Origin: a plasmid
Length of the DNA: 64,000 nucleotides
Assembly (NCBI RefSeq): GCF_058153355.1
Contig: NZ_JBLWLY010000002.1
Reading direction: 5' to 3' (one strand)
Shown: positions 10,974-56,348 of the stretch, piece after piece
Layout: each line of letters starts with the position of its first letter
How positions within the stretch are numbered: position 1 is the first letter of the stretch
The notes under the pieces: model-generated
The model's database searches: none
Told to the model about the DNA's origin: nothing
The model's input: only the letters and a program-made list of their open reading frames with translations
Made by a program: the position numbers and the translations under genes

Positions 10974-11048
10974 ATGCCCGGAAAAGTTCAAGACTTCTTT
11001 CTGTGCTCACTCCTTCTGCGCATTGTAAGTGCAGGATGGTGTGACTAA
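10974..11048 (+). CDS. tap: Tap/RepA6 leader peptide
   Basis: 24-aa [27 protein letters not shown]; stop overlaps the GTG start of repA1. Confidence 0.75.
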
Positions 11049-29910: not shown

Positions 29911-30156
29911 TCGCGGGTTCTGACAGCGGTGGTGAACATGCTGCGGTGTTGTACTCGCTGATCGGCACATGCCGTCTGAACAATGTGGAACCAGAAAAAT
30001 GGCTGCGTTACGTCATTGAGCATATCCAGGACTGGCCGGCAAACCGGGTACGTGATCTGTTGCCCTGGAAAGTTGATCTGAGCTCTCAGTAAATATCAAT
30101 ACGGTTCTGACGAGCCGTTTACTCAGAAAGAGAGCGATACGCTACAGCTGGAGCTG

Positions 30157-33033: not shown

Positions 33034-33044
33034 CAGAGGAAAGT

Positions 33045-35480
33045 GTGTGTGCAGGAAAGAAGGGGGCAGAGCTGGTTTTGTTCTTGTTTTTTCGTCGGGC
33101 CGCGCTTGCTGTATCAGTCGCTTTCGCCAGTGCCACAGGTGTTGCAGGTGAAAAACTGGATATGTCCTTTATTCGGGGTGGTGCCGGGATTAATCCGGAA
33201 GTCTGGGCAGCGCTGAACGGCAGCTATGCACCGGGACGTTATTTGGTTGACCTGTCCCTGAACGGGAAGGAAGCCGGGAAACAGATACTGGATGTGACAC
33301 CACAGGACAGTGATGAACTGTGCCTGACAGAGGCATGGCTGACGAAGGCCGGGATTTACGTCAGTGCAGATTACTTTCGTGAGGGATATGACGCCACACG
33401 GCAGTGTTATGTGCTGACAAAAGCGCCGTCAGTGAAGGTGGATTTTGATGTTTCCACTCAGAGTCTGGCGCTGTCCCTTCCCCAGAAGGGGCTGGTGAAG
33501 ATGCCGGAGAACGTGGACTGGGATTACGGGACTGGTGCATTTCGCGTGAACTATAACGCGAACGCCAACACCGGCCGGAATAACACCTCGACCTTTGGCT
33601 CGGCAGATCTGAAGGTTAATATTGGGCACTGGGTGGTGAGTTCTTCTGCCTCAGCCAGCGGTGGTGACAGCGGGGATAACTCCGCCACGATAAACGCGTT
33701 CACGGCCACCCGGGCCATCCGCGCACTGAGTGCGGACCTGACGGTCGGGAAAACATCCACCGGGAGCAGTCTGCTGGGCAGTACGGGAACGTACGGAGTG
33801 TCGCTGAGCCGGAACAACAGCATGAAGCCGGGCAATCTGGGGTATACCCCGGTGTTCAGCGGCATTGCGAACGGGGCGTCGAGGGTGACACTGACACAGA
33901 ACGGGCGGTTGCTGCATTCGGAGATGGTGCCGGCAGGTCCGTTCTCCATCACGGATGTGCCGCTGTACACCAGTGGGGATGTGACCATGAAAATCACCGG
34001 CGAGGACGGTCGTGAGCAGACTCAGGTCTTCCCGTTGTCGGTGATGGCCGGGCAGTTAAGCCCGGGACAACACGAGTTCAGCGTGGCAGTCGGTTTGCCT
34101 GACGATGACAGTGACCTGAAAGGCGGCGTGTTTGCGGCGTCATACGGTTACGGTCTGGATGGACTGACGCTGCGCACCGGGGGCGTGTTTAACCGGGACT
34201 GGCAGGGTATTAGCGCCGGGGCTGTCCTGGGGCTGAGTTATCTGGGGGCAGTGTCTGCTGACGGGGCTTATGCCATGGCGAAATACCGTGACGGCAGCCG
34301 CAGCGGAAATAAGGTGCAGTTATCCTGGAGTAAACAACTGGAGATGACGAACACCGGACTGCGGGTGAGCTGGTCACGGCAGAGTGAGGAATATGAGGAC
34401 ATGTCCTCCTTTGACCCGACAGAGCTGTGGTCGCAGTCAAATCATGGTCGCCGGCCGAAGGATGAATGGAATGCCGGTATCAGTCAGTCGGTGGGGGGGC
34501 TGTTCAGTCTGTCGGTGTCCGGCTGGCAGCGGAGTTATTACCCGGCACAGATGACGGGCCGTTATCGGTACAGCGATGACAATGGTCTGGACACAGGGAT
34601 TACCGGTACCCTGAGCACACAGATTAAGGGCGTCAGTCTGAATCTGGGCTGGTCCGGCTCACGGAATTCGCAGGGAGAGAATAACAGGTCGGCGTCAGCC
34701 TCTATCTCGGTGCCATTCACGCTGTTTGAGCGTCGCTACAGCAGCAGTACGTCGGTGAGTACCAGCAAAGGCGGTGGCACGGGCTTCAGCACTGGCGTGT
34801 CCGGCTCGCTGAATGACCGTTTCAGCTATGGCTTGGGCGGCGGTCGTGATAGCGGTGGTGGTGTGAGTAGTTATCTAAACGCGTCGTACAGTGGTGACCG
34901 GGCTTATCTGAATGGTGCCCTGAACCACTCACAGTCCGGCGGAACCAGTGGTTCTGTATCAGTCAGCGGTTCGGTACTGGTCGTCCCGACGGCGAAAGAC
35001 ATTATGTTCAGCCGCACGACCGGGGACACCGTGGCCGTGGTGAACGTGAAGGATACACCGGGTGTGAAGGTGACGTTCGGTGACGGACAGACTGACAGCG
35101 ACGGCAACCTGGTGGTACCGCTGAACAGCTATGACTGGAACACGGTGACGATTGATGCGGGCACACTGCCGCTGAGCACCGAACTGACGAACACCAGTCA
35201 GAAGGTGGTGCCGACGGACAAGGCGGTGGTCTGGATGCCGTTTGATGCCCTGAAAGTCAAGCGTTACCTGCTGCAGGTGAAGCAGCGTGACGGTGAGTTT
35301 GTGCCAGGGGGAACCTGGGCACGTGACAGTAAGAACACACCGCTGGGCTTTGTAGCTAACAATGGTGTGCTGATGATTAACACGGTGGATGCGCCGGGTG
35401 ATATCACCCTAGGCCAGTGCCGGATACCTGCGGCCAGACTGCAGGATACTGAGAAACTACAGGAGATTACGTGTGAGTAA
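33045..35480 (+). CDS. fimbrial outer-membrane usher (FaeD-like)
   Basis: 811-aa ORF, usher-sized, between subunit and chaperone genes. Confidence 0.85.
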   Translation: MCAGKKGAELVLFLFFRRAALAVSVAFASATGVAGEKLDMSFIRGGAGINPEVWAALNGSYAPGRYLVDLSLNGKEAGKQILDVTPQDSDELCLTEAWLTKAGIYVSADYFREGYDATRQCYVLTKAPSVKVDFDVSTQSLALSLPQKGLVKMPENVDWDYGTGAFRVNYNANANTGRNNTSTFGSADLKVNIGHWVVSSSASASGGDSGDNSATINAFTATRAIRALSADLTVGKTSTGSSLLGSTGTYGVSLSRNNSMKPGNLGYTPVFSGIANGASRVTLTQNGRLLHSEMVPAGPFSITDVPLYTSGDVTMKITGEDGREQTQVFPLSVMAGQLSPGQHEFSVAVGLPDDDSDLKGGVFAASYGYGLDGLTLRTGGVFNRDWQGISAGAVLGLSYLGAVSADGAYAMAKYRDGSRSGNKVQLSWSKQLEMTNTGLRVSWSRQSEEYEDMSSFDPTELWSQSNHGRRPKDEWNAGISQSVGGLFSLSVSGWQRSYYPAQMTGRYRYSDDNGLDTGITGTLSTQIKGVSLNLGWSGSRNSQGENNRSASASISVPFTLFERRYSSSTSVSTSKGGGTGFSTGVSGSLNDRFSYGLGGGRDSGGGVSSYLNASYSGDRAYLNGALNHSQSGGTSGSVSVSGSVLVVPTAKDIMFSRTTGDTVAVVNVKDTPGVKVTFGDGQTDSDGNLVVPLNSYDWNTVTIDAGTLPLSTELTNTSQKVVPTDKAVVWMPFDALKVKRYLLQVKQRDGEFVPGGTWARDSKNTPLGFVANNGVLMINTVDAPGDITLGQCRIPAARLQDTEKLQEITCE

Positions 35481-36255
35481 GCGTAACGCAGTAACGACGT
35501 TTTTCACTAACCAGGTGACAAAAGCACTGGGAATGACGCTGGCGCTGATGATGAGCTGTCAGAGTGCGGTGGCTTCCCTGGCGGCAGACCAGACCCGCTA
35601 TATCTTTCGCGGGGACAAGGATGCGCTGACCATCACGGTCACCAACAATGACAAGGGACGTACCTTTGGTGGTCAGGCATGGGTGGACAATATCGTGGAG
35701 AAAGACACCCGTCCGACTTTTGTGGTGACGCCGTCCTTCTTCAAGGTGAAGCCGAATGGTCAGCAGACACTGCGTATCATCATGGCCTCGGACCATCTGC
35801 CGAAGGATAAAGAGTCGGTGTACTGGCTGAACCTGCAGGATATTCCGCCGGCTCTGGAGGGCAGCGGTATTGCAGTGGCGCTGCGTACGAAACTGAAACT
35901 GTTCTATCGCCCGAAGGCACTGCTTGAAGGTCGCAAGGGGGCAGAAGAAGGCATCAGTCTGCAGAGCCGCCCGGATGGCAGGACCATGCTGGTGAACACC
36001 ACGCCATACATTTTTGCGATTGGCAGCCTGCTGGACGGAAACGGAAAGAAAATTGCCGCGGATAACGAGACGGCGCAGAAACTGCTGATGTTCATGCCGG
36101 GTGATGAAGTACAGGTGAAGGGAAATGTGGTGAAAGTGGACTCCCTGAATGATTACGGTGAACTGCAGACATGGACGATTAACCAGAAGAAATCAGCAAT
36201 ATCGTCTGCACAGAAGTCATCTGATACAGAGGGTAATTCATCTGATAAAAAATAA
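35473..36255 (+). CDS. periplasmic fimbrial chaperone (FaeE-like)
   Basis: 260 aa with signal peptide; start overlaps usher stop. Confidence 0.8.
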   Translation: MSKRNAVTTFFTNQVTKALGMTLALMMSCQSAVASLAADQTRYIFRGDKDALTITVTNNDKGRTFGGQAWVDNIVEKDTRPTFVVTPSFFKVKPNGQQTLRIIMASDHLPKDKESVYWLNLQDIPPALEGSGIAVALRTKLKLFYRPKALLEGRKGAEEGISLQSRPDGRTMLVNTTPYIFAIGSLLDGNGKKIAADNETAQKLLMFMPGDEVQVKGNVVKVDSLNDYGELQTWTINQKKSAISSAQKSSDTEGNSSDKK

Positions 36256-36289
36256 TCGCCCTCCGGCATACGGAACAGAGGGGTAATAA

Positions 36290-36781
36290 ATGAAGAAAAC
36301 AATGATGGTAGTCGCCTTGGCCCTGAGTGCACTCAGTATTCAGTCAACACTTGCCGCTGAATACAGCGAGAAAGCGCAGTATCTGGGGGTGGTGAATGGC
36401 CAGGTGGTGGGTAACAGCGTGGTGAAGGTAACCCGCACACCGACAGATCCGGTGCTGTACCGGAGTGGAGACACGACGCCTCTTCCCGACCGCCTGACCA
36501 TCCGTAATGCAGAATCCAGAGCAGCATCTGGTGGCTTGGCGTATATCACGGTGAAACAGGTGCTGCCTGATAACGGGGAAGCCCGCATCACCCTGAAGAC
36601 GGCCCTGATGGTTGATGGAAAGAAAGTGGCAATCAGCGCCAGACAGCAGGGTGAGGATATGGTGATAACTTTGCCGGAAGCACAGAAGCAGATTGAATTA
36701 AGAACGGATGCACCGGCAGAGCTGGAAGTACCGGTCAGTTACCGGGGAAATCTGCAGATAGCGCTGCAGGTGGAGGACTGA
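36290..36781 (+). CDS. minor fimbrial subunit (FaeF-like)
   Basis: 163 aa with signal peptide MKKTMMVVALALSALSIQSTLA. Confidence 0.6.
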   Translation: MKKTMMVVALALSALSIQSTLAAEYSEKAQYLGVVNGQVVGNSVVKVTRTPTDPVLYRSGDTTPLPDRLTIRNAESRAASGGLAYITVKQVLPDNGEARITLKTALMVDGKKVAISARQQGEDMVITLPEAQKQIELRTDAPAELEVPVSYRGNLQIALQVED

Positions 36782-36994
36782 GGATTCATTTCCTTTATAA
36801 ATGCAGTACATCCCGTGATTCCGGAGCGGGTCATATTGGTAAAGGGATTTACCGTCTTTTAAAACGGGAATAACGTAAAACAATTCTGAGTTAAACACTG
36901 TGTTTAATGAAATGCGGTTATTTAAATGAATCCGCAGGGGATGGTTTTGCGGTAATTCCGGGGAAATAAGGATTACTGATTCAGTTTATTATTT

Positions 36995-37819
36995 ATGAAA
37001 CGTCAAGGTGATTATTTTATGAAAAAGACTCTGATTGCACTGACTGTGGCTGCTTCTGCCGCAGTATCCGGCTCTGCTATGGCGTGGAATCCCGCTGGCC
37101 TTGGTGGCAACGGTGGCACCTTTAGCATGAGTGGTACTCTGAGCAAAGCTGCGAAAGTAGTACCGTGGGCAGTGGAAATAGGTGCTCCGGTAACAGCGCT
37201 TGATGTGACCGTTAAACCTGACCAGAAGAATGTTTTCATTCTTTTAGAAAAAGACATACCGATACTTGGCATTCGTAGCGCCCCGCAGGGTTTCATAGGG
37301 GAAAAGGGTATTGCCCCACAAATCGATTATAATAAAGCCGCTAATTTTGATTATATGGATAAGGGGAATTTACCTGCGGAAATTGATGTCACATCATCTG
37401 ATGGTAAGAAAATTGGTACTCTGGCGTTCGTAATGCGAGTTGCCTGTCAGGCCAGCGAAAAGAAGGGTGAAAGCGACGACAAGTTAAATAGTAGCATGCT
37501 ATTCGCTGGTTCAAAAGGTAAAGCTTTCTTTGGTGGAGTTGCCAAAGATGAAAAGGGTATCTGGAGTGACGCCGCTGCCTATACTTGGGCTACCCACCTT
37601 TTTAGCAGTATTGCTGACTCGTGGGATACTAAAATTCCTTACACGGCGGGCGATGCAGATGAAACCGACTTCAGTGATGGAAACAGTATTTACCGAGGTT
37701 ACTATGCATCCGGCCTTGTCAAGGGTATGCCCATGGAACTAACTCTTGATCAGACTATAACGTCTGCTACCCCAATTCCGTGGAAAGCTTCTCTGCCAAT
37801 TGTTATCTCCTACATGTAA
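36995..37819 (+). CDS. major fimbrial subunit (FaeG-like)
   Basis: N-terminus MKKTLIALTVAASAA...AWNP resembles K88 FaeG MKKTLIAL...AW; 274-aa ORF, probable start about 37020. Confidence 0.75.
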   Translation: MKRQGDYFMKKTLIALTVAASAAVSGSAMAWNPAGLGGNGGTFSMSGTLSKAAKVVPWAVEIGAPVTALDVTVKPDQKNVFILLEKDIPILGIRSAPQGFIGEKGIAPQIDYNKAANFDYMDKGNLPAEIDVTSSDGKKIGTLAFVMRVACQASEKKGESDDKLNSSMLFAGSKGKAFFGGVAKDEKGIWSDAAAYTWATHLFSSIADSWDTKIPYTAGDADETDFSDGNSIYRGYYASGLVKGMPMELTLDQTITSATPIPWKASLPIVISYM

Positions 37820-38032
37820 TTCAGCAGTGTTCAGCAGTAAGCACTTACCCGTTTACTGCTGATTAAAACTTCAGAACACAGTTTCCGGTGACCCGACCTG
37901 AATATACAGAACCGGTATGTCAGAACAGGTGTTTTTCTGTTGGAGTGTCTTGTGACGCATATTGGTTCTGTGCTTTTTTTAACAAAATTATTTTATTGAG
38001 CTGTTTTGTTTTATCCGGATAAACAGGAATGA

Positions 38033-38836
38033 ATGCCGATGAAAATAACGCATCATTATAAATTCTTCCTTTCTGCTGTTATTTTGGTAACCATATTTTA
38101 TTCGGCAGTGCCATATGCAAATATTCTTGATGGCGGCGAAATTCAGTTTAATGGCTATGTTACTGATGAAGCACCCAAATGGGCCTGGCAGATAAGTTCT
38201 CCCGACCAGACTTGGTCTGTGGATACTGCCGATGCCCGTACAGAGAACGGGCAACTGGTTTTTAATTTGCATGATAAAGGGGCTCTGCCATTTCTGGAGG
38301 GACATCTGCATGATGTGGCTGAGCGCGGTGGTCCCGGATTCACGCCATTTATTACTTTCAGCAGTAACGGACAGCCTTTTACTGTGACGGAAGGAAATGG
38401 TGCCTCAGCACAGCACTTTCGCGCCTCTGTCCCGGTGCGTGACCCGGAGACGGGGAACGTGTCGGGACAGCTTTTTTTTACCCTGAATCAGGGAATGGCG
38501 GTCAGTACCGGCAGACAGGACGACGGGGCATCCGTACCGGCTGGCATGTCGCTGGTCAGTGGACAGAGTGTGACGGATGTACAGCCGGGAAGTCTGCCAC
38601 AGGGGCTGAAAGCCCGACTCTCTTCCCTGTTACTGATGAATCAAAATTTTGGCAATGGCATGAATGCGGTGGATAACGGACAGGTTATCAACCAGGGGAT
38701 ACTGACTGACGGTCGGGTGATGGATCTGGCTGCGGCATATGCCTCTGCGGTGTCGGATTTTGAACTGCGGTTGCCGGCAGAGGGTACACCTGCAGCATGG
38801 CAGGCGGGGCTGAATGTGACGGTTACAGTACAGTGA
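38033..38836 (+). CDS. minor fimbrial subunit (FaeH-like)
   Basis: 267 aa with signal peptide; position after major subunit. Confidence 0.6.
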
Positions 38837-38865
38837 TGGTTGCAGGGATATAAGGAGAGAAGAGA

Positions 38866-39630
38866 ATGAAAAAGGTGGCGTTGTTTCTGTTTGCTGCTAG
38901 CCACCTGCCTTCCTGTGTACTGGCTTGGAACACGCCAGGAGAAAATTTCAGCGGAGAGCTTAAGCTGGAAGGCCCGGTGACCAGTACCCGTAACCCGTGG
39001 GTATGGAAAGTCGGGCAGGGAAATGAAGGTCTGGAGGTTAAACAGAGCCGCGGTGTTCGTGGCGGTGGGGAGGGGATTCAGGTCGAACTGCCGGCGATGA
39101 CCGTTTTACTGGGAAAAACCACCCTGACCACACCGGCAGGACGTGAGGGGCTTTCACCCCGGGTCAGTTATGGAAAAGGCACTGAGGGGTTTTCACTTGT
39201 ATGGACAGCGCCTGGCATGGCTGAAGTGACGCTACCTGTCACCGGAGATAATAATGCCCGGGCAGGCACATTTGTTTTCAGAATTCAGGCTGTGGGGGTG
39301 TTGCGCCATGTGCAGGGCGGACAACCGGTGTATGTTGGTATGTATGACGACCTGAATACGAATGGTTTGCCAGGTGAAAGCACTGCCATGAAGGTTTCTG
39401 ATATTCCGGGCGTTCTGCAGAAGATGTTCAGTGGGGAAGGCCCCGGCTGGCTTCAGACAATGACACTCAGTGGTTATTCAGGGGTGAGTCATTTCAGTGA
39501 TGACTTCCTGCGCCAGGTTGAAGGTGTGTATGGTGCACAGACTGTGGCTGGCAGTGGTGAATTACGGCTGAACGGCGAGATGCCGGAACACTGGAGGGTG
39601 TCACTGTCAGTAAACATTGAATATCAGTAA
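38866..39630 (+). CDS. minor fimbrial subunit (FaeI-like)
   Basis: 254 aa with signal peptide ending AWNTPGE, similar N-terminus to the major subunit. Confidence 0.6.
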   Translation: MKKVALFLFAASHLPSCVLAWNTPGENFSGELKLEGPVTSTRNPWVWKVGQGNEGLEVKQSRGVRGGGEGIQVELPAMTVLLGKTTLTTPAGREGLSPRVSYGKGTEGFSLVWTAPGMAEVTLPVTGDNNARAGTFVFRIQAVGVLRHVQGGQPVYVGMYDDLNTNGLPGESTAMKVSDIPGVLQKMFSGEGPGWLQTMTLSGYSGVSHFSDDFLRQVEGVYGAQTVAGSGELRLNGEMPEHWRVSLSVNIEYQ

Positions 39631-39953: not shown

Positions 39954-41180
39954 ATGTCAGGAACCATACCGAAAATCAAAACAGGTGAAAATGTTCTGTC
40001 TGCAGCCATTCAGCGCATTGAATGGCTATTTGGAACGTTTCCTTCTGTCTGCTTGTCCTTTTCTGGTGGTAAGGATTCTACCGTGCTTTTCCATCTTGTG
40101 TCCGAAGTGGCCCGCAAAAAGAGGCGTCGTTTTTCGGTATTGTTCATTGACTGGGAAGCACAATATCAATGCACCATTACGCATATTCAGAAGATGCAGA
40201 AGATGTACCTGGATGTGACGGACAGGTTTTACTGGGTGGCCCTTCCCCTGACTACGGTAAACGGTGTCTCTCAGTTTCAGCCGGAGTGGATATGCTGGGA
40301 GCCTGGTGTGACCTGGGTTCGCCATCCACCGGAATATGCTATTACGGATATGGCGTATTTTCCCTTTTACCGATATGCCATGACCTTTGAGGAATTTATC
40401 CCGGCGTTTTCCTCCTGGTTTGCCAGGGATAAATACCTGGTGGCTGTTCTGACCGGAGTCCGGGCAGATGAGTCCCTCAACCGCTTTATGGGACTGGTAT
40501 CCCGTCGCAAACAGAGATATGCCGATGATAAACCCTGGACTACGGCATCACCTGAAGGGTTTTATTACACCATGTATCCGTTGTATGACTGGAAAGCCCG
40601 TGATATCTGGATATATAACGCCAGAACCCGAGCTATCTACAATCCCCTGTATGACCTGATGCACCGTGCCTGTGTGCCGTTACGCAACATGCGTGTCTGT
40701 GAGCCTTTTGGTCCTGAACAGCGTAAGGGGCTGTGGCTTTATCATGTTCTGGAGCCGGAAACCTGGGCCAAGATGTGTGAGCGGGTGTCGGGTGCTGCCA
40801 GCGGGGCGCTTTATGCCAATGAGAGCGGTGCCTATTTTGCCCTGCGTAAGCGTATCACGAAGCCGCCTCATCATACCTGGCGTAGCTATGCGATGTTCCT
40901 GCTGGATGTGATGCCGGAAAGAACGGCAGAACATTACCGTAACAAAATTGCTGTCTACCTGCGCTGGTATCAGACGCGAGGCTTCCCGGATGACATTCCG
41001 GATGAACAGGAGAATGACCTGGGGGGCCGGGATATCCCGTCCTGGCGACGCATCTGTAAAACACTCATAAAAAATGATTTCTGGTGCCGGACCCTCTCCT
41101 TCAGTCCGAACAAAGCCCGGCACTATGAACGTTACCTGCAGCGTATGAAGGAAAGGAGGAAGGAATGGGGGATTCTGTGA
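39954..41180 (+). CDS. PAPS-reductase-family (PP-loop) protein, IbrA-like
   Basis: 408 aa with PP-loop motif SFSGGKDS near the N-terminus. Confidence 0.7.
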   Translation: MSGTIPKIKTGENVLSAAIQRIEWLFGTFPSVCLSFSGGKDSTVLFHLVSEVARKKRRRFSVLFIDWEAQYQCTITHIQKMQKMYLDVTDRFYWVALPLTTVNGVSQFQPEWICWEPGVTWVRHPPEYAITDMAYFPFYRYAMTFEEFIPAFSSWFARDKYLVAVLTGVRADESLNRFMGLVSRRKQRYADDKPWTTASPEGFYYTMYPLYDWKARDIWIYNARTRAIYNPLYDLMHRACVPLRNMRVCEPFGPEQRKGLWLYHVLEPETWAKMCERVSGAASGALYANESGAYFALRKRITKPPHHTWRSYAMFLLDVMPERTAEHYRNKIAVYLRWYQTRGFPDDIPDEQENDLGGRDIPSWRRICKTLIKNDFWCRTLSFSPNKARHYERYLQRMKERRKEWGIL

Positions 41181-41803
41181 CACCGGAGATACTTGGCAAC
41201 ATGATTCGTCAGTATTTCAGTCAGGTACGAACTGAAAAAGAGAGCATACAGGCTCTGAATCATCTGCGCAGAGTGCTTCATGAGGTCAGTCCTTTTGCAC
41301 AGGAGCCTGTGGACTGTGTGTTGTGGGTGAAAGCGGATGAGGTGGTGGCCAACGATTACAACCCTAATGTCATGGCACTAGGTGAGAAAAAACTACTGAA
41401 ACAGTCTCTGGAGAAAGATGGTTTCACACAACCGGTGGTGGTGTCAGAGGAGAAGAATCATTATCTGGTGGTGGATGGTTTTCATCGTCAGTTACTGGGG
41501 CGGGAAGCAGATACAGGAAAACGCCTGAGGGGCTGGTTGCCTGTAGTCTGTATTAATCCGGAGAGAAAGGGACAGGCCGCACGTATTGCCGCGACCATTC
41601 GACATAACCGGGCCAGGGGGAAACACCAGATCACTTTAATGTCTGATATTGTCAGGGATCTTTCACGTCTGGGCTGGACGAATGAACGTATTGGTACAGA
41701 GCTGGGAATGGACCAGGATGAAGTGCTGAGGCTGAAACAGATTAGCGGGCTGACAGAGTTGTTTCAGGAAGAGGATTTCAGCCCGGCTTGGACGGTTCGT
41801 TGA
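41165..41803 (+). CDS. ParB-like nuclease-domain protein, IbrB-like
   Basis: 212 aa with VVDGFHR (ParB/DGQHR-type motif); start overlaps upstream stop. Confidence 0.7.
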   Translation: MGDSVTPEILGNMIRQYFSQVRTEKESIQALNHLRRVLHEVSPFAQEPVDCVLWVKADEVVANDYNPNVMALGEKKLLKQSLEKDGFTQPVVVSEEKNHYLVVDGFHRQLLGREADTGKRLRGWLPVVCINPERKGQAARIAATIRHNRARGKHQITLMSDIVRDLSRLGWTNERIGTELGMDQDEVLRLKQISGLTELFQEEDFSPAWTVR

Positions 41804-42030: not shown

Positions 42031-42915
42031 ATGAAAAAACAGATATTTATTAATAATAAACCTCCTGTAGTCCCTTATTCAGGGGCGCACGCGAAAATAT
42101 TTAAATACATTGAAATCCCTCTGCCGTTTTTCTACTTTATCTATACATCAGGCGAACCATTCCACATGTCTGTCCAAAATACTGTTATTTATGTATCAAA
42201 ATACAATGGTATATTTATTAATAAATCAGTTCCTTTTTCTTTTTTATTTGACAGAGATATATCTGTTCTTCAAAGAAGAGATATTTGTGTTGTGCGATTT
42301 ACGTCAGAGGAGATAAGTGAACATAATGTTTTATTTGATCATGACTTTGAACGATTAAAAAAAATTTCCAAAGCTCAGCTTATATCTCCCGATTATGTTT
42401 TGATTGATTTTTCTAGTGGGGGGGAGGATGAATCCTACGCAATGTCCTGGTTAATATCTCAGTGTACTCATCAGTATACAGATAATAAAAAGACGGAGAC
42501 AGATGCTATTTACGATAAAGTGCGGAGTTCTTATTTGCTTTCATGTATTCTGCAAAAAAACGAAAATGTTGGGCTTATTCTTCATGCACCATCATTTGTT
42601 TCTGTGTCTGAAAAAATCGCCAGAATTGTGATGGCAAATTACTCCCGTAACTGGAGTACTTCCGAGTTGGCCAGTGCGGTTTTAATGAGTGAATCTTCTT
42701 TAAAAAGAAGAATGTACAAAGAGGTCGGTTCTATAAGTACATTTGTACATAAAATAAAGCTTACAGAAGCTATCAGGAAATTACGAAGGACAAATACTCC
42801 CATTTCTGTCATATCATCTGAGTTAGGTTACAGTTCACCATCGTATTTTTCTAAAGTTTTCTTTAAATATTTAAAGACATACCCTCAAAACATAAGGAAG
42901 AAAAATGGTCGGTAA
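42031..42915 (+). CDS. AraC-family transcriptional regulator (Rns/AggR-type position)
   Basis: 294 aa, low-GC gene; C-terminal region AraC-type HTH. Confidence 0.75.
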   Translation: MKKQIFINNKPPVVPYSGAHAKIFKYIEIPLPFFYFIYTSGEPFHMSVQNTVIYVSKYNGIFINKSVPFSFLFDRDISVLQRRDICVVRFTSEEISEHNVLFDHDFERLKKISKAQLISPDYVLIDFSSGGEDESYAMSWLISQCTHQYTDNKKTETDAIYDKVRSSYLLSCILQKNENVGLILHAPSFVSVSEKIARIVMANYSRNWSTSELASAVLMSESSLKRRMYKEVGSISTFVHKIKLTEAIRKLRRTNTPISVISSELGYSSPSYFSKVFFKYLKTYPQNIRKKNGR

Positions 42916-43102: not shown

Positions 43103-43144
43103 CGCGCCGCCTTCGTAAGCGGCTCGCCAGAACCGTATTGATAT

Positions 43145-44716
43145 TTACTGAGAGCTCAGATCAACTTTCCAGGGCAACAGATCGCGTACCCGGTTTGCCG
43201 GCCAGTCCTGGATATGTTCAATGACGTAACGCAGCCACTTTTCTGGCTCCACATTGTTCAGACGGCATGTGCCGATCAGCGAGTACAACACCGCAGCATG
43301 TTCACCACCGCTGTCAGAACCCGCGAAGAGCCAGTTTTTCCGGCCTACGGCCACTCCCCGTAAGGCGTTCTCTGCGATGTTGTTGTCGATTTCCACCCAG
43401 CCATTACTGCAGTACACGTTCAGTGCATCCCACTGTTTCAGCAGGTATGCGAACGCTTTTGCCGTGTCCGAGTGACGCGACAGTGTTTTCATCTGTTGCT
43501 GTATCCAGTCATACAGTGACTGCATCAGTGGCGCGGCTCTGGCTTTTCTTGCCGCCAGACGCTGTTCTGCTGAACAGCCCCGGACCTCTGCCTCGATGGC
43601 ATACAGTTCACCGATACGCTGCAGGGCTTCCGTGGTGATGTCGGTGGGCACTCTTGCATGCACATCGTGGATTTTTCTCCGGGCATGAGCCATACATGCG
43701 GCTTCCGTTATTCTGCCGGATTCGTACAACGCCCGGTAACCACCGTAAGCATCGGCCTGAAGCACTCCGCTGTAACCGGCCAGATGATTCTGTGGATGGA
43801 TACCTTTCCGGTCCGGGCTGTACGCGAACCAGACCGCCGGAGGCATTTCCGAACCGGCGTTACGGTCATCACGAACGTAGACCCACAGCCGGGCAGTCCT
43901 TGTTTTACCGCTGCCCGGCTCCTGGACCGGAACGGGGATATCATCGGCATGGACTTTACCGGGCATCAGCACATACTGGCGCAGGATGTCATACAGCGGT
44001 TCCAGCAGTTCAGCAACAGCACCTGTCCAGCGCCCCAGTGTGGCACGGCTCAGCTCCACGCCCTGACGACGGTATATTTCTGACTGGCGGTATAACGGCA
44101 GATGGTCTGCATATTTTCCAGCGACAACATGGGCCAGAAGCCCCGCTCCGGCATAACTGCGTGCAATGGGTTTTGAAGGCACCGGAGCCTGCACGATATG
44201 GTCGCACCGGCAACAGGCCAGTTTCGGACGTTGTGTTTCGATAACCTTAAAGGCGCTGCTGATAAGCTCCAGTTGCTCTGACACATCACATCCCAGAGAA
44301 CTGAGTTCGCCACCACAGGCCGGGCAGCATTCCTCTTCCGGACGGATGACCCGGGTTTCACGGGGAAGTGAGGCAGGTAACGGTTTACGGGCTGAAGACT
44401 GGCGCAGGGGAGATGGCAGTACCGGGTCATATTGCTCACCCAGCGTTTCCGCCATTTCTTCCTGAAGAGCGCTGATTCGCTCCTGTGCTTCCTGTATCTG
44501 CCGTTCGGTTTTTGCACGAAGTTTTTCTGAGCTTTTACCGAACTGCATGCGCTGCAGTTTTGCAACCAGCGCCTTCAGCCGGTTGATTTCGGAAGCATAA
44601 GCCGCCACCCGCTGTGAGAGCAGGCGGTTGTATTTCGCCATCTGGCGGATGGTGTCCTGTTGCGTCTGCAACAGTGCCCGCAGGCGGGCATTCTCATGAG
44701 CAAGTGAGGTGTCCAT
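43145..44716 (-). CDS. IS66 TnpC transposase
   Basis: 523 aa, intact. Confidence 0.85.
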
Positions 44717-44735
44717 ATCCTCACTTTACAACGGG

Positions 44736-45083
44736 TTATATGCGGATGCCAGCGCGTTCCGTTCGTTTCGGGTGTTTCCAGTCGATGCCCTCAAGAAGCA
44801 TGGATAACTGGGCCGGAGTAAGGTGCACCTTGCCGTCACGGGTGACCGGCCAGACGAAGCGGCCCCGCTCCAGGCGTCTGGTGAAGAGGCACAGTCCGTC
44901 ACTGTCAGCCCACAACACTTTTATCTGGTCACCCCGGCGTCCGCGGAAGATGAACAGATGCCCGGAGAACGGGTCATCCTTCAGGACGTTCTGAACTTTT
45001 GAGGCCAGGCCGTTAAAGCCATTTCGCATATCGGTGATACCTGCAACCAGCCAGATACGCGAACCTGCAGGGAAAGATATCAT
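44736..45083 (-). CDS. IS66 TnpB
   Basis: 115 aa. Confidence 0.8.
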   Translation of the reverse strand: MISFPAGSRIWLVAGITDMRNGFNGLASKVQNVLKDDPFSGHLFIFRGRRGDQIKVLWADSDGLCLFTRRLERGRFVWPVTRDGKVHLTPAQLSMLLEGIDWKHPKRTERAGIRI

Positions 45084-45694
45084 CAGTGGCTACTCCCTTT
45101 TATTTCGCGGATAAGTATCTGTAATAACGCCAGCGTCAGTTTACCTTTAAGCCTGAGAGTTCCGGCCGGCAGAACCAGCTCATAGCACAGACTGTCGGAC
45201 GGTGTATTTATCTGCTCTGGTTCCTGTGCCGGAGCCGGGATTTTATTATCCGGCTCCGGCGTTAACGTCACGGGAAGTAGCGATGTTTCATGTTCGCCGG
45301 GCGGCTGCAGGCCGCCGTTACGCCAGAGATGCCGCCAGTTAAAGAGCAGGTTATCGTTGATTCCATTCTCACGAGCTATTTGTGCGACACAGGCACCGGG
45401 TAAAAGAGTTTGCTGAACAAGTCTCCATTTAAACTCCGGTGAAAATCGGTTCCGGCGGGGTTTCTCTGCTTTCACAGGCTGAGTCACGGTCGGGGTTGAA
45501 GGATATCGCCCCGGGAAAAGAGCCCGGGCCAGTTGCCCGCAGGAATATTCGCCGGAAAGAGGCCAGTCAGTGAATACCTGGTGAAATCGCCTCACCAGAG
45601 AAAAAATGGCGGTTTTGCTGACACCAGTCTGCGCAGAAATGCGCGGGTACGACAGTGACTCGTCAAATCTCAGCTGTAGCACACGCAGGATCAA
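45083..45694 (-). CDS. IS66 OrfA with unusual 90-aa N-terminal extension
   Basis: C-terminal 110 aa orfA-like ([28 protein letters not shown]); N-terminal part unlike other copies. Confidence 0.5.
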   Translation of the reverse strand: MILRVLQLRFDESLSYPRISAQTGVSKTAIFSLVRRFHQVFTDWPLSGEYSCGQLARALFPGRYPSTPTVTQPVKAEKPRRNRFSPEFKWRLVQQTLLPGACVAQIARENGINDNLLFNWRHLWRNGGLQPPGEHETSLLPVTLTPEPDNKIPAPAQEPEQINTPSDSLCYELVLPAGTLRLKGKLTLALLQILIREIKGSSH

Positions 45695-46639: not shown

Positions 46640-46827
46640 TACAGGGGCAGGCGGTTGAGGCCGCCTGTCAGCCCGCGCGAAAACCCCTGGCAGGCTGGCG
46701 CCTGCCGGAAGGGAAGCGGGCCACGCTGGCGCGTCGCCCGTTACCCTTCCCGTCTGTGATGTGTCTGACTCAGGAGTGTTTCTTTCTTATGTTATGGAAC
46801 TGTTCCTGATGTTGTTGTTCCTTTATC

Positions 46828-47295
46828 TGCTGCTCTGATTCTGACTACTGCAGTGTTGTTCTGTCTGCCGGGCGCACCTTCGGCTCCCGGCTGCCTGGCG
46901 GCATCTGGTCGTCAGGCCCGACTCCGACAGGCAGCTGCTGGCGCACCTGCCAGTCTCCGCCGAACCCGCTGGCGCGGTTTCGGGCTGTCGCTACGGTCCG
47001 ATGCGTGAAAACCCCGGGCTTGCAGCGACCGTTCCGGTCGCGCCGCCTCTGTCGCGCCGTGGCCTGCGCTCCTGGCATCCCGGCAAAAGGCCGCCGGGAT
47101 GTAAGGCGCAACGCCGTTTCGCAAACCGCGCTTCACGTCGTTGCGGCGGGTCCCTGCCCGTTGTTGTGTCCGGTGCCATTCACCTGTTTAAGCCCCTTGC
47201 GGCGAAGGTTCTCAAACAGGTGATGGTGAATACCGGAGGGAACAAAAGGCCGGTCCCCGCAAAACGTCAAAACCGCGGCTCCCGAAACTCAACAG
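46828..47295 (+). repeat. leading-region repeat upstream of ssb (Frpo/ssi-like single-strand promoter candidate), copy 1
   Basis: GC-rich structured sequence repeated at 51998..52640; the ORFs predicted inside are identical between copies and look spurious. Confidence 0.55.
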
Positions 47296-47334
47296 ATGAT
47301 GGGGGCTGAAAACATCAACAGAAGGAGACACATC

Positions 47335-47874
47335 ATGGCAGTTCGTGGCATTAACAAGGTCATTCTCGTAGGACGCCTGGGTAAAGATCCGGAAGTCCGT
47401 TACATCCCCAACGGGGGCGCAGTGGCAAACCTGCAGGTGGCCACGTCAGAAAGCTGGCGTGACAAACAGACGGGGGAGATGCGGGAGCAGACAGAATGGC
47501 ATCGCGTGGTGCTGTTCGGCAAGCTCGCGGAAGTGGCAGGTGAATATCTGCGCAAGGGCGTGCAGGTCTACATCGAAGGCCAGCTTCGTACCCGTAGCTG
47601 GGAGGATAACGGTATCACCCGTTACGTCACCGAAATCCTTGTTAAAACCACGGGCACCATGCAGATGCTGGGACGTACCGCAGGTGCTCAGACTCAGCCG
47701 GAAGAGGGGCAACAGTTCAGCGGTCAGCCTCAGCCGGAACCACAGGCGGAGGCCGGTACGAAAAAAGGTGGCGCGAAAACGAAAGGCCGTGGACGTAAGG
47801 CCGCGCAGCCCGAGCCTCAGCCGCAACCGCCGGAGGGGGAGGATTACGGGTTTTCAGACGATATCCCGTTCTGA
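47335..47874 (+). CDS. ssb: plasmid single-stranded DNA-binding protein
   Basis: [23 protein letters not shown]..., Gly/Pro/Gln-rich tail and acidic C-terminus DDIPF. Confidence 0.9.
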
Positions 47875-48224: not shown

Positions 48225-50183
48225 ATGTCAGTTACAGAGTTTAAGGTAAAAGCGGGGCGTAAATCCAGCCGTAAACCGTCAAAAGTGCAGGAGACTGCAC
48301 TGTCTGCCCTGCTGGCGCAGACGGAAGAAGTGAGCGTGTCGCTGGCCTCGCTGATTAAATCACCGCTGAATGTGCGCACGGTGCCGTATTCCGCAGAGTC
48401 CGTCAGCGAACTGGCGGAGTCCATTAAGGGCGTCGGCCTGTTGCAGAATCTGGTTGTTCATGCCCTGTCGGGTGAGCGTTACGGTGTCGCCGCAGGTGGT
48501 CGCCGACTGGCAGCACTCAACATGCTGGCAGAGCGCAACATCCTTCCGGCTGACTGGCCTGTACGTGTAAAGGTTATTCCGCAGGAACTGGCGACTGCCG
48601 CATCAATGACTGAAAACGGTCATCGTCGGGATATGCACCCTGCCGAACAGATTGCCGGATTCCGCGCAATGGCGCAGGAAGGCAAAACACCTGCACAAAT
48701 CGGTGATTTGCAGGGCTATTCACCCCGCCACGTTCAGCGAATGCTGAAACTGGCTGACCTTGCCCCGGTTATCCTCGATGCGCTGGCAGAAGACCGCATC
48801 ACCACCGAACACTGTCAGGCGCTGGCGCTGGAGAACGACACCGCGCGTCAGGTGCAGGTGTTTGAAGCCGCCTGTCAGTCGGGATGGGGAGGTAAACCGG
48901 AAGTACAGACCATTCGTCGTCTGGTGACCGAAAGTGAAGTGGCGGTGGTGGGGAACACTAAATTCCGCTTCGTGGGGGCTGATGCCTTCTCGCCAGATGA
49001 ACTGCGCACCGATTTGTTCAGCGACGACGAGGGTGGCTATGTGGACTGTGTTGCGCTCGATGCTGCCCTGCTGGAAAAACTCCAGGCTGTTGCTGAACAC
49101 CTTCGGGAAGCCGAAGGCTGGGAATGGTGCGCCGGACGCATGGAGCCTGTCGGTTTCTGCCGTGAGGATGCCGGAACATACCGCTGTCTGCCGGAGCCGG
49201 AAGCGGTGCTGACGGAGGCAGAAGAAGAACGCCTGAACGAACTGATGGCACGTTACGACGCGCTGGAAAACCAGTGTGAGGAATCTGACCTGCTGGCAGC
49301 AGAAATGAAGCTGATTGACTGCATGGCGAAGGTCAGGGCGTGGACGCCGGAGATGCGTGCCGGAAGTGGCGTGGTGGTGTCCTGGCGTTACGGTAATGTG
49401 TGTATCCAGCGTGGTGTGCAGTTACGCAGTGAGGATGATGCGGCTGACGACGCTGACCGCACAGAACAGGTGCAGGAAAAAGCGTCAGTGGAGGAAATCA
49501 GTCTGCCACTGCTGACGAAAATGTCTTCCGAACGCACGCTGGCAGTCCAGGCGGCACTGATGCAGCAACCGGACAAATCCCTGACACTGCTGGCATGGAC
49601 GCTCTGCCTGAATGTGTTTGGCAGCGGGGCGTACAGTAAACCAGCACAAATCAGCCTGGAATGTGAACATTATTCGCTGACCAGCGATGCGCCATCGGGG
49701 AAGGAAGGTGCCGCATTCATGGCGCTGATGGCAGAAAAAGCCCGTCTTGCTGCCCTGTTACCGGAGGGATGGGCACGGGACATGACGACATTCCTGTCAC
49801 TCAGTCAGGAGGTGCTGTTATCCCTGCTCAGTTTCTGCACCGCATGCAGCCTTAACGGTGTCCAGACCCGCGAGTGTGGTCACACGTCACGCAGTCCGCT
49901 TGACTCGCTGGAAACCGCTATCGGATTCCACATGCGCGACTGGTGGCAGCCGACAAAAGCAAACTTCTTCGGACACCTGAAAAAGCCGCAGATTATCGCA
50001 GCCCTGAATGAGGCAGGGCTGTCCGGTGCCGCACGGGACGCGGAGAAGATGAAGAAAGGTGATGCGGCTGAACATGCAGAGCACCATATGAAAGACAACC
50101 GCTGGGTTCCAGGCTGGATGTGTGCACCACATCCACAGACAGATGCCACTGAACGCACCGATAACCTGGCTGATGCCGCCTGA
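48225..50183 (+). CDS. ParB-like nuclease-domain protein of the leading region (652 aa)
   Basis: N-terminal ParB-like region (LLQNLVVHA...GGRRLAALN); size and position typical for F-like plasmids. Confidence 0.75.
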   Translation: MSVTEFKVKAGRKSSRKPSKVQETALSALLAQTEEVSVSLASLIKSPLNVRTVPYSAESVSELAESIKGVGLLQNLVVHALSGERYGVAAGGRRLAALNMLAERNILPADWPVRVKVIPQELATAASMTENGHRRDMHPAEQIAGFRAMAQEGKTPAQIGDLQGYSPRHVQRMLKLADLAPVILDALAEDRITTEHCQALALENDTARQVQVFEAACQSGWGGKPEVQTIRRLVTESEVAVVGNTKFRFVGADAFSPDELRTDLFSDDEGGYVDCVALDAALLEKLQAVAEHLREAEGWEWCAGRMEPVGFCREDAGTYRCLPEPEAVLTEAEEERLNELMARYDALENQCEESDLLAAEMKLIDCMAKVRAWTPEMRAGSGVVVSWRYGNVCIQRGVQLRSEDDAADDADRTEQVQEKASVEEISLPLLTKMSSERTLAVQAALMQQPDKSLTLLAWTLCLNVFGSGAYSKPAQISLECEHYSLTSDAPSGKEGAAFMALMAEKARLAALLPEGWARDMTTFLSLSQEVLLSLLSFCTACSLNGVQTRECGHTSRSPLDSLETAIGFHMRDWWQPTKANFFGHLKKPQIIAALNEAGLSGAARDAEKMKKGDAAEHAEHHMKDNRWVPGWMCAPHPQTDATERTDNLADAA

Positions 50184-50237
50184 TGAACAACCACACCGCC
50201 CCGCCGGAGACGGGGCGGCAGCAAGGGAGATACTGTG

Positions 50238-51290
50238 ATGAAAACTGAACTGACCCTGAATGTATTACAGACCATGAGTGCACAGGAATATGAAGATATC
50301 CGGGCTGCCGGAAGTGATGAACGCCGTGAGCTGACACACGCCGTGATGCGGGAACTGGATGCGCCGGACAACTGGACGATGAATGGCGAGTACGGCAGCG
50401 AGTTCGGCGGCTTTTTCCCCGTCCAGGTCCGTTTCACGCCTGCCCACGAACGTTTTCACCTGGCGTTATGTTCACCGGGCGATGTCTCTCAGGTCTGGGT
50501 GCTGGTTCTGGTGAATGCCGGTGGTGAGCCGTTTGCGGTGGTTCAGGTGCAGCGGCGGTTTGCACCGGAAGCTGTCAGCCATTCACTGGCACTGGTTCCC
50601 CTCAGCGCAGAGCAACAGGCCGCATGGCGGGCGCTGGCAGAGACGGAAAAACGCCGCCATCAGGGAAACTTGCTGGCGGAATATCCGTATGCGGGGGCGT
50701 TTTTCCGCTGTCTGAACGGAAGCCGCAGGATATCGCTGTCTGACCTGCGATTTTTCATGCCGTCCCTGACCGCAGAAGAACTGCACGGCAACCGTCTTCA
50801 GTGGCTGTATGCCATCGATGTGCTGATTGAAACACAGGGCGAGGTCTGCCTCCTTCCCCTTCCCGGTGATGCAGCAGAGCGGTTGTTTCCGTCGGTGCGG
50901 TTCCGTGTCAGGGAGCGCAGTCGCCACAAATCCGCACTGGTCATGCAGAAGTACAGCCGTCAGCAGGCACGGGAGGCAGAGCAGAAAGCCCGTGCGTACC
51001 AGGCACTGGTTGCTCAGGCTGAAATCGAACTGGCGTTCCATTCACCGGAAACAGTCGGAAGCTGGCATGCCCGCTGGAGTGACCGGGTGGCAGAGCATGA
51101 CCTGGAAACCCTGTTCTGGCAGTGGGGTGAGCGTTTTCCGTCACTGGCCGGGATGGAACGCTGGCAGTGGCAGGATATGCCATTCTGGCAGGTTATCGCG
51201 GAAGCCAGTCTGGCAGCAAGAGAGGTCGGTCACGCTGTCCGTGAGATGGAGCGGTGGATGGTGCCGAACAAACTCCGGGAGGCAGCGTAA
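50238..51290 (+). CDS. psiB: PsiB-PsiA in-frame fusion protein
   Basis: N-terminal about 119 aa PsiB-like ([13 protein letters not shown]...), remainder PsiA-like to the end. Confidence 0.7.
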
Positions 51291-51479
51291 TGCGGCAACA
51301 ATCACACAGATTACCCGTAAACAGCCTGAATGAGCGGGTTATTTTCAGGAAAAGTGAATGTGGTCAGCGTGCTGGTATATGGGCTATGATGTGCCCGGCG
51401 CTTGAGGCTTTCTGCCTCATGACGTGAAGGTGGTTTGTTACCGTGTTGTGTGGCAGAAGGACAAAAGCCCCGTAGTTAA

Positions 51480-51545
51480 TTTTCATTAACCCACGAGGCC
51501 CTGCATGCTTAGACAACATCAGGATAGCCTCTTACCGCGCTTTGC
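51480..51545 (-). ncRNA. sok: Sok antisense RNA (approximate)
   Basis: expected antisense partner upstream of hok and overlapping the mok start; bounds not determined. Confidence 0.35.
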
Positions 51546-51717
51546 GCAAGGAGAAGAAGGCCATGAAACTACCACGCAGCTCCCTTGTCTGGTGTGTGTT
51601 GATCGTGTGTCTCACACTGTTGATATTCACTTATCTGACACGAAAATCGCTGTGCGAGATTCGTTACAGAGACGGATACAGGGAGGTGGCGGCTTTCATG
51701 GCTTACGAATCCGGTAA
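51505..51717 (+). CDS. mok: Mok (modulator of hok translation)
   Basis: 70-aa ORF overlapping hok in another frame. Confidence 0.6.
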
Positions 51718-51721
51718 GTAG
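51563..51721 (+). CDS. hok: Hok host-killing toxin
   Basis: 52 aa [52 protein letters not shown]. Confidence 0.9.
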
Positions 51722-51997
51722 CAACCTGGAGGCGGGCGTAGGCCCGCCTTTTCAGGGCTGATGCTGGTCTGACTGCACTGAAGCGCCTTTATAAAGGGGC
51801 TGCTGGTTCGCCGGTGGCCCCTTTCTCCTTGCTGGCATTGTGCGGGCATGAACAACCAGGCTGCCAGGAAGGCCGTTTCCCTTCGGGAACGGGGAAGAAC
51901 GCGCGCCTGCGGCGCCCGTTCTTCTCCTCCGTCTTCTCTGTTTATGGCCAGTTGTCAGAAATGACATTACCTTTCCCGTGATTATTCTCTTTTTCTT

Positions 51998-52640
51998 CCT
52001 GCTCTGATTCTGACTACTGCAGTGTTGTCCTGTCTGCCGGGCGCACCTTCGGCTCCCGGCTGCCTGGCGGCATCCGGTCGTCAGGCCCGACTCCGACAGG
52101 CAGCTGCTGGCGCACCTGCCAGTCTCCGCCGAACCCGCTGGCGCGGTTTCGGGCTGTCGCTACGGTCCGATGCGTGAAAACCCCGGGCTTGCAGCGACCG
52201 TTCCGGTCGCGCCGCCTCTGTCGCGCCGTGGCCTGCGCTCCTGGCATCCCGGCAAAAGGCCGCCGGGATGTAAGGCGCAACGCCGTTTCGCAAACCGCGC
52301 TTCACGTCGTTGCGGCGGGTCCCTGCCCGTTGTTGTGTCCGGTGCCATTCACCTGTTTAAGCCCCTGTCGCCGGGGGCAAAGACAGCCACAACCTGCCGC
52401 ACTGACTGTCTAGGGTAAATGAACAGCCCACAAAATTTTTTACCCAAAACCCGGTAAAAAATTTTGCGTTCTGCCCCGGACAGGTGCGTCAGGCCGTGGC
52501 AGTGATGCCCCTTGCGGCGAAGGTTCTCAAACAGGTGATGGTGAATACCGGAGGGAACAAAAGGCCGGTCCCCGCAAAACGTCAAAACCGCGGCTCCCGA
52601 AACTCAACCGATGATGGGGGCTGAAAACCAGAGAGAGGAG
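51998..52640 (+). repeat. leading-region repeat, copy 2, with about 130-bp internal insertion
   Basis: same sequence as 46828..47295 plus an extra block (tgtcgccgggggcaaagacagcc...gtgatgcccc). Confidence 0.55.
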
Positions 52641-55479: not shown

Positions 55480-55670
55480 AGGGAAATAAATTTTGACTTT
55501 GTTCAAATATCAGAGTTTTTAATGGTTCAAACTGATGACAATAATCAGAATAATTAGTATATTAATTACGTGGTTAATGCCACGTTAAAATTTGAACTTG
55601 AAAATCGCCGATGCAGGGAGCTTGTCCCTCCCTGCATCGACTGTCCATAGAATCCTTTGAGGAGGTTCCT

Positions 55671-56348
55671 ATGTGTGCGATGGATACTAGAGAAAGAGCA
55701 CTCATACGTCAATCAGGCCTGCCGGAAATTATTTTATCCGCAAAATATCCAGTCTGTGTCCGCACAGAGTCTACCGTTCCCGGTGACCGGATTATCGCCG
55801 TGAACAGTCTGGATGGTGCCCTGACCAATAATGAGCAGACCGCCTCCGGCGGTGTGGTGGTTGCCACCGTCAACAAAAAGCCCTTTACGTTCATTCTGGA
55901 AACAGAACGTGGTCTGAACCTTTCCATTCAGGCCGTTCCCCGTGAAGGCGCGGGGCGTACCATTCAGCTGGTCAGTGACCTGCGCGGAACCGGAGAAGAA
56001 GCCGGTGCGTGGGAAACGTCCACGCCTTACGAATCCCTGCTTGTGACCATCAGCCAGGCCGTCCGTGGCGGAAAATTACCCGCAGGCTGGTATCAGGTCC
56101 CGGTGACAAAGGAAACCCTGCAGGCCCCGGCGGGGCTGTCTTCAGTGGCAGATGCCGTATGGACGGGGAATCATCTGAAGATGGTCCGCTTTGCCGTGGA
56201 AAATAAAACGCTGTCTGCCCTGAATATCCGGGAAAGTGACTTCTGGCAGCCGGGAACCCGTGCCGTGATGTTCAGCCAGCCTGCCAGCCAGTTACTGGCA
56301 GGTGCGCGCATGGATGTGTATGTCACCCGTGACGGGGAGGGCAACTGA
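55671..56348 (+). pseudogene. traJ'-'traK fusion left by deletion of traJ through traE
   Basis: ATG at 55671 with RBS gaggagg; first about 36 codons TraJ-like, then TraK-like sequence from [13 protein letters not shown] to the end. Confidence 0.65.

Follow-up and report, generated by a model that had tools for sequence, protein, structure and literature searches.

Plasmid F (NC_002483, locus L001) carries psiB as a separate gene of 144 amino acids (aa), followed by the psiA frame, and the stop codon of psiB overlaps the start codon of psiA in the sequence ATGA (the gene table of PLSDB, which is incomplete, holds no psiA feature for NC_002483). In the plasmid sequence analyzed here, a contiguous stretch of 64,000 nucleotides (nt) that we refer to as the window, a single reading frame at positions 50238 to 51290 covers both genes. 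We asked how the two genes came to be joined, how often this has happened, and whether the joined form is a lesion or a product of selection.

One reading frame contains most of psiB and psiA

The open reading frame (ORF) list and the sequence gave one unbroken ORF on the plus strand, consisting of 350 codons and a TAA stop codon. A GTG at 50235, one codon 5′ of the ATG, would yield a protein of 351 aa; public protein collections contain the ATG-initiated 350-aa form only, and the GTG-started form is absent. The 350-aa protein matched two Pfam profiles with scores far above their cutoffs. The PsiB profile (PF06290; E = 3.2e-55, 186 bits against a cutoff of 25.2) was matched by residues 4 to 121, which correspond to profile positions 1 to 119 of 139. 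The match to the PsiA profile (PF06952; E = 1.3e-37) was nearly full length, with residues 115 to 346 covering profile positions 4 to 236 of 237. The sole solved structure matched by the sequence of the fusion was 3NCT, the PsiB protein of the F plasmid (E = 6e-75, residues 1 to 121); beyond this PsiB hit, the PDB held no significant structural match for the PsiA module.

Alignment to F resolved the protein into PsiB residues 1 to 119 and PsiA residues 9 to 239 (119 + 231 = 350 aa), with an Ala-Leu at the junction that can be assigned to either parent. The initial annotation of the window, made from the letters alone, had described psiB and psiA as merged here and as separate genes in F-like plasmids, with roughly the last 25 codons of psiB and the first codons of psiA missing. 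The two Pfam matches and the F alignment bore out the merger, F does have the genes apart, and the junction peptide was as given there. The missing parts are exactly psiB codons 120 to 144 (25 codons) and psiA codons 1 to 8.

The part of the ORF that derives from psiB only (50238 to 50581; PsiB residues 1 to about 115) encodes three N-terminal helices, the β-sheet, and the start of the helix at residues 110 to 119, as judged from Pfam, the F alignment, the 3NCT match, and AlphaFold. It is followed at 50582 to 50595 by the deletion junction, which was located by the F alignment and a repeat search and consists of the single remaining copy of a 14-bp direct repeat, TTCACTGGCACTGG. The psiA-derived part (50596 to 51290; PsiA residues 9/10 to 239; Pfam and F alignment) ends where psiA normally stops. 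The psiB gene has kept its own Shine-Dalgarno sequence, AAGGGAG, which was read at 50223 to 50229, 8 nt 5′ of the ATG. All of these features are on the plus strand.

Compared with PsiB of F (144 aa; 3NCT; PF06290), the fusion is 98% identical over residues 1 to 119, has the same ribosome-binding site, and lies at the same place in the leading region, with the ParB-like gene before it and psiA after it; in contrast to F PsiB, residues 120 to 144 are missing and 231 PsiA residues stand in their place. A complete PsiB domain of about 140 to 145 aa, including the C-terminal helices, is thus not present. Compared with PsiA of F (239 aa; PF06952; function unknown), residues 9 to 239 are 96 to 97% identical and the stop position is the same, whereas the start codon, the ribosome-binding site, the first 8 residues, and the ATGA coupling are gone. 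The initial annotation had allowed that PsiB might be full length here and a length of 144 aa wrong for this lineage, which did not hold. PsiB has 144 aa in F, and among relatives with identities as low as about 40%, most have 142 to 146 aa (one has 159 aa) and the C-terminal segment is conserved; the allele is therefore a truncated PsiB rather than a short variant of its lineage.

The surrounding leading region has the gene order of F and other IncF plasmids, with the psiB start 3′ of ssb and the ParB-like gene and read towards oriT. A repeat made up of blocks of 300 nt and 122 nt (46819 to 47313, plus strand) lies 5′ of the plasmid ssb gene (47296 to 47874, plus strand; domain annotation), the first gene of the block. 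A DUF905 gene and an intact ParB-like gene of 652 aa (48225 to 50183, plus strand; ORF and domain evidence) precede the fusion. Directly 3′ of the fusion is a hok/sok-type (flm) postsegregational killing locus (51396 to 51721, plus strand; Rfam sok match and Hok-like ORF), and then come a second copy of the two-block repeat (51988 to 52628; blocks 98% and 99% identical to the first copy), a DUF932 gene, an SLT transglycosylase gene, and traM. By their position, the two repeats are inferred to correspond to Frpo2 and Frpo1, the single-strand promoter regions described for F (PMC9849209).

A 98-bp deletion between direct repeats joins the two genes

The alignment to F that the initial annotation had proposed as a check gave one clean gap of 98 bp in sequence that was otherwise about 97% identical. 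In F, the deleted stretch is flanked by a 14-nt direct repeat with one copy in psiB (TTCACTGGCACTGG) and one in psiA (TTCACAGGCACTGG). The copies are identical at 13 of 14 positions, their starts lie 98 bp apart (family D4), and the imperfect repeat can be written as TTCAC(T/A)GGCACTGG. They are located around codons 115 to 119 of psiB and codons 4 to 8 of psiA. The repeat is thus found at both ends in intact relatives and in one copy in the mutant, as in direct-repeat-mediated deletions. The same two copies with the 98-bp spacing were also found in H133 and H139; H1 has them too, but its psiA copy contains one additional mismatch. L013 carries a G at the variable position of its psiA copy.

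The 98 bp comprise the last 25 codons of psiB, the ATGA stop/start overlap, the GGAGG ribosome-binding site of psiA, and its codons 1 to 8, including the start codon, and psiA therefore no longer exists as a separate, translationally coupled gene. Since the psiA frame is offset from that of psiB and 98 mod 3 equals 2, PsiA residues 9 to 239 fall in frame behind PsiB. The alignment shows that the ORF is a deletion-derived chimera: an intact F-type psiB-psiA pair with the ATGA overlap lost the 98 bp between the two repeat copies, and one hybrid copy was left. The chimera is translated from the ribosome-binding site of psiB, and the start that would yield free PsiA is gone.

Replication slippage and short-homology illegitimate recombination are an established RecA-independent route for deletions between short direct repeats that lie close together. 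Its signature is a missing segment bounded by repeats of which the mutant keeps one, and from this we infer that the 98 bp were lost in this way. Several properties are shared with short-direct-repeat deletions in E. coli replicons: the 14-bp repeat pair at a distance of 98 bp with one copy kept, crossovers at two points within the repeat, and a second deletion that uses the 5-bp microhomology CAGGG (see below). Unlike in such cases, no hairpin that would favor slippage was found between the repeats. The inter-repeat single-stranded DNA folded no better than shuffled sequence (z = −0.04), and secondary structure was rejected as a driver of slippage. The psiB-psiA locus holds other equally good short repeats; it would be its recurrence alone that earns the 14-bp pair the label “hotspot.”

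The chimeric allele is rare

As the initial annotation had also suggested, sequenced relatives were searched for the same fusion, and it was found in public E. coli drafts. The exact 350-aa protein is public as EGO8355114.1. At 90% identity it clusters with others from E. coli drafts and read-set assemblies, 13 distinct sequences in all, and the DNA of most of these was retrieved. Seven members have a name at NCBI, which is “conjugation system SOS inhibitor PsiB” for six and “plasmid SOS inhibition protein A” for the seventh. The junction is common to 12 of the 13 members, 11 of which have it in one form and one as SHSQAL|VPLS; the remaining member, P0005, has a different junction (LDTQG|NTLAEY). 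The main PsiA clusters, in comparison with these 13 sequences, have thousands of members.

To count the allele in nucleotide databases, we used a 46-nt query across the junction (window positions 50569 to 50614; blastn, E ≤ 1e-8), since two-piece matches ranked equal to one-piece matches with queries of 81 nt and 1.3 kb. In a local control, all four known junction variants gave E ≤ 4e-10 at the database sizes used, whereas intact loci gave E ≥ 3e-5. The query had no match in 72,556 PLSDB plasmids, more than 5,000 of which carry the psiB-psiA locus, and none in 5,426 complete E. coli genomes, 3,447 of which carry it. Together, these searches indicate that the fusion allele is real but very rare. 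The fusion sequences are thus already public, and a full-text literature search found no account of a psiB-psiA chimera or of a deletion hotspot.

The fusion was also considered as the normal architecture of some lineage. This possibility was rejected: in an HMMER search of 1.84 billion proteins (50% identity cluster representatives), none of the best 150 of 365 hits spanned both halves. These 150 hits matched either the PsiB part (at most residues 1 to 133) or the PsiA part (residue 109 onward), so that PsiB and PsiA are separate proteins across their families. A domain fusion of the “Rosetta stone” type would be kept across diverged lineages; the fusion alleles found here are identical or near-identical to intact ones.

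Other sporadic psiB-psiA chimeras (P0005, P0014, P0020, P0024, P0067, and P0083) likewise combine a PsiB N terminus and a PsiA C terminus in one ORF, but they differ from the window fusion in their junctions, which include a frameshift read-through in a Klebsiella plasmid. Where cluster sizes were listed, they were mostly singletons; P0005 occurred on contigs from about a dozen samples. Further chimeric ORFs were observed nearby, namely, P0128, P0025, P0048, and P0065, which join a ParB-like N terminus to PsiB or PsiA, and P0016, an Antirestrict-PsiA fusion. Small deletions may be frequent in the leading region generally.

The deletion removes an ordered part of PsiB

Intact PsiB is a conjugation SOS inhibitor that binds free RecA (PMC8744291, PMC8406263). 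In pED208 matings, loss of psiB raised the mating-induced SOS response and deletion of psiA lowered it, and both PsiA and PsiB are substrates of the type IV secretion system (T4SS) (PMC8406263). Loss of psiB lowered the transfer of a cointegrate plasmid (PMC10976473); the transfer efficiency of F determined by plating was unchanged by psiB deletion (PMC9849209). The products of leading genes, including psiB, are made only transiently in transconjugants and are undetected in vegetative donors (PMC9849209).

The role of the PsiB C terminus was assessed from AlphaFold models, superposition on 3NCT, and conservation in the family. The model of intact F PsiB (pLDDT 92, pTM 0.87) contained C-terminal helices at residues 110 to 125 and 130 to 141 with a pLDDT of about 95. 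It superposed on chain D of the 3NCT crystal structure over 140 columns with a root mean square deviation of 1.2 Å; these helices are therefore ordered parts of the fold and not a floppy tail. PsiB homologs down to about 40% identity keep the C-terminal pattern LD..GYS..DII..L..EG, and at least 90% of them have E140. The chimera lacks the end of helix 110-125 and the whole of helix 130-141.

In the AlphaFold model of the chimera, both modules were confident (pLDDT 92.8), and the low pTM of 0.59 is expected of two domains with no defined mutual orientation. AlphaFold is insensitive to destabilization, and the model is no proof of a stable or active truncated PsiB module. From the models and the conservation, the RecA-sequestering anti-SOS activity of the chimera is probably lost or weakened, which makes the suggestion in the initial annotation of an altered or lost SOS inhibition plausible; the PsiB core of 119 residues could keep RecA binding. 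The PsiA module, which is nearly whole, would survive only as a tethered C-terminal domain.

The window plasmid has lost much of its transfer region

Compared with the conjugative plasmid CP088640.1, the window plasmid keeps the 5′ untranslated region of traJ and FinP (55568 to 55771, plus strand; CP088640.1 comparison and Rfam) and then reaches a breakpoint at about 55769 to 55771, where the overlap is just about 3 nt. The tra operon is broken here right after traM, and about 2.3 kb are gone, comprising most of traJ, traY, the pilin gene traA, traL, traE, and the start of traK (about 50 codons). The ORF at 55611 to 56348 is a traK with an altered N terminus. A second disruption was seen in the comparison with CP088640.1 where traC should begin, at an IS66-family element (61170 to 63138, minus strand), and no homology to the traC-trbJ region of CP088640.1 was detected within the window. 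This element and a second IS66-family copy at 43114 to 45153 each had about 97% identity to the IS66 of CP088640.1 over about 2 kb. Because traJ, traY, traA, traL, traE, and everything from traC onward have been lost, the plasmid can no longer transfer itself.

A tolerated lesion probably explains the fusion better than selection does

The best overall explanation, to which we assign a probability of about 0.72, is that the ORF is a chimera produced by a recurrent, repeat-mediated deletion, that its PsiB activity is lost or weakened, and that it persists as a tolerated decay lesion on a transfer-defective plasmid. Leading-region genes have a role only when the plasmid enters a recipient, and selection on them is probably relaxed in a plasmid that does not transfer itself. 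The fusion would then be a further step in the decay of this plasmid, tolerated since vegetative cells do not express psiB. Decay of the plasmid is no precondition for the fusion, since two of the other contigs that carry it (L002 and L017) have an intact-looking traM-to-traV region.

These two contigs are also among the observations that would fit a different reading, in which the fusion is an adaptive bifunctional protein and selection has repeatedly favored the covalent coupling of PsiB and PsiA. The gain could lie in co-translocation through the T4SS, in a damping of PsiB by PsiA, or in silencing PsiB while PsiA is still translated. Such a reading would be in line with an in-frame fusion that recurs on several backgrounds, with the confident models of both modules, and with the nearly exclusively synonymous variation among related fusion alleles. 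One backbone, described below, even has two different in-frame deletions. That both proteins are T4SS substrates, and that a psiA deletion lowered SOS in pED208 matings, hints at an interplay between them (PMC8406263). However, the in-frame outcome is dictated by the geometry of the repeats, and only in-frame products could be detected in our survey. The extreme rarity of the allele, with no occurrence among the PLSDB plasmids and complete genomes that carry the locus, speaks against a benefit, as does the absence of any protein spanning both halves among the best 150 of the 365 representatives of the family. At least two of the alleles are identical or near-identical to intact relatives and are thus recent and not long maintained, and the part of PsiB that is destroyed is conserved and ordered. 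We therefore regard an adaptive fusion as unlikely.

A more specific form of this idea, that the 98-bp deletion is a recurrently selected switch making one tethered protein, either to abolish RecA inhibition by PsiB while keeping PsiA or to deliver a co-translocated effector, seems to us equally doubtful. If it were true, the switch would give the plasmid an advantage in some hosts, e.g., where suppression of RecA or SOS is costly, and the natural chimeras would point to PsiA and PsiB working in physical association.

With a tolerated deletion chimera as the preferred reading, the ORF would be better labeled a psiB′-′psiA deletion chimera, probably a loss-of-function allele of psiB. Since the repeat pair repeatedly yields an in-frame fusion, surveys that score psiB by a Pfam hit will count such noncanonical alleles. 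The finding amounts to a correction of annotation and a natural tool rather than a new system. Near-isogenic natural pairs, e.g., NZ_CP091025.1 (intact) and GCA_015094175.1 (deleted, with no other difference in the gene), could be used to dissect the C-terminal helices of PsiB and the uncharacterized PsiA in the control of SOS during conjugation.

The 98-bp deletion arose more than once

Intact relatives from which the 98 bp had been cut in silico were aligned with the fusion alleles. The allele of L002 (GCA_015094175.1) equaled that of the intact plasmid NZ_CP091025.1 minus 98 bp, with 0 of 1,050 other positions different, and the allele of L007 equaled that of the intact NZ_CP024281.1 minus 98 bp, with 1 difference in 1,050. 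Between L002 and L007 themselves there are 58 differences (5.5%). Across the set, fusion alleles were 33 to 70 nt apart in about 1,050 and were no nearer to each other than to the intact allele of F. The junction itself also varied. L010 has the psiA-type base in the repeat (CACAGG; CATTCACAGGCACTGG), which places its crossover to the left of the mismatch, while in the other alleles it lies to the right. Marker single nucleotide polymorphisms (SNPs) 5 to 14 nt on either side of the junction vary between backgrounds and agree with the intact relatives of each background.

Because L002 and L007 match different intact alleles, the crossover of L010 differs, and the flanking SNPs differ, the sequences indicate that the 98-bp deletion arose independently at least two times, and it probably did so on four or five plasmid backgrounds. 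The survey detects in-frame products only, and its ascertainment is biased in that direction.

A group of three alleles (L002, L017, and L018) is less divergent, at 5 to 10 nt apart, and nearly all of these differences are synonymous. L017 and L018 encode an identical fusion protein on upstream flanks that are mosaic and just 91.6% identical, and in PLSDB the intact allele closest to L018 has 98.9% identity to it. These three could go back to additional separate deletions on backgrounds outside the sample, to spread by recombination, or to a fusion lineage that has persisted. If the synonymous changes occurred after the fusion, they would indicate purifying selection on the chimera.

The same protein on such different flanks is how recombinational spread would look, and F-like plasmids are highly mosaic. 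Both points would suit a single origin, with one fusion spreading by plasmid transfer and homologous recombination and no recurrent deletion. For the whole set, such a history is hard to reconcile with the near-perfect match of L002 and L007 to two different intact alleles across the whole gene, with the background-specific SNPs beside the junction, and with the different crossover base of L010; it would require recombination to have broken the sequence repeatedly within about 15 nt of the junction on each side. We consider a single origin of all fusion alleles highly improbable, and by these comparisons it is largely refuted; within the subgroup of L002, L017, and L018, it may still hold.

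The k-mer sizes typical of short-read assemblers are well above 14 bp, and most other occurrences of the fusion are in short-read drafts or Logan contigs, but a sequencing or assembly artifact is very unlikely, bordering on negligible, because an identical junction recurs on different allele backgrounds and in NCBI, ENA, and Logan assemblies that are independent of one another and come from different laboratories, because an imperfect repeat of 14 bp is well under the usual k-mer and should not force a false join, and because the window itself is one contiguous sequence of 64 kb.

Two further loci, L011 and L012, carry a different deletion of 104 bp at the CAGGG microhomology, on a backbone that they have in common with L014, which carries the 98-bp deletion. 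This backbone (Logan contigs ERR10711976, ERR10712099, and SRR31129144) thus has two in-frame psiB-psiA deletions in different samples. Its leading region abuts a fragment from the middle of TraI and a TolA-like gene, and the stop codon of psiA has been lost, which adds a tail of 14 aa.

Other features of the window plasmid

The window is an IncFII plasmid laden with insertion sequences, with four IS66-family copies or fragments, two IS110-family elements, one IS21 element, and two group II introns. Its IncFII replication module (10866 to 11898) contains the CopA antisense RNA (Rfam, 98.6 bits) and RepA (TIGR03474, E = 2.6e-172). No PLSDB plasmid covered more than about 72% of either of the two 24-kb stretches of the window that were searched, and the plasmid is therefore a mosaic that is not represented in PLSDB; the complete RefSeq genomes of E. 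coli did not contain it either.

The group II introns (4688 to 6438, minus strand; 28160 to 29910, plus strand) are inverted relative to each other and have identical Rfam scores and identical family scores for their 410-aa reverse transcriptase/maturase. Both are apparently flanked by IS66-family sequence, with fragments at 4476 to 4687 and 6516 to 7064 for the first and at 29911 to 30122 for the second. This arrangement suggests that an intron inserted into an IS66 element, which was then duplicated.

The window also contains a K88 (F4)-like chaperone-usher fimbrial operon (32491 to 39630 and 42031 to 42915), which encodes an usher of the PefC/AfrB family, a chaperone, and three Fimbrial_K88 subunits and which marks the plasmid as one of the virulence type. 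A gene for an AraC-family regulator is located near the operon. At positions 39954 to 41803, a gene for a protein of 408 aa that has PAPS-reductase and DUF3440 domains overlaps the next ORF, which has 212 aa and no Pfam hit; the two presumably resemble the IbrA/IbrB pair.
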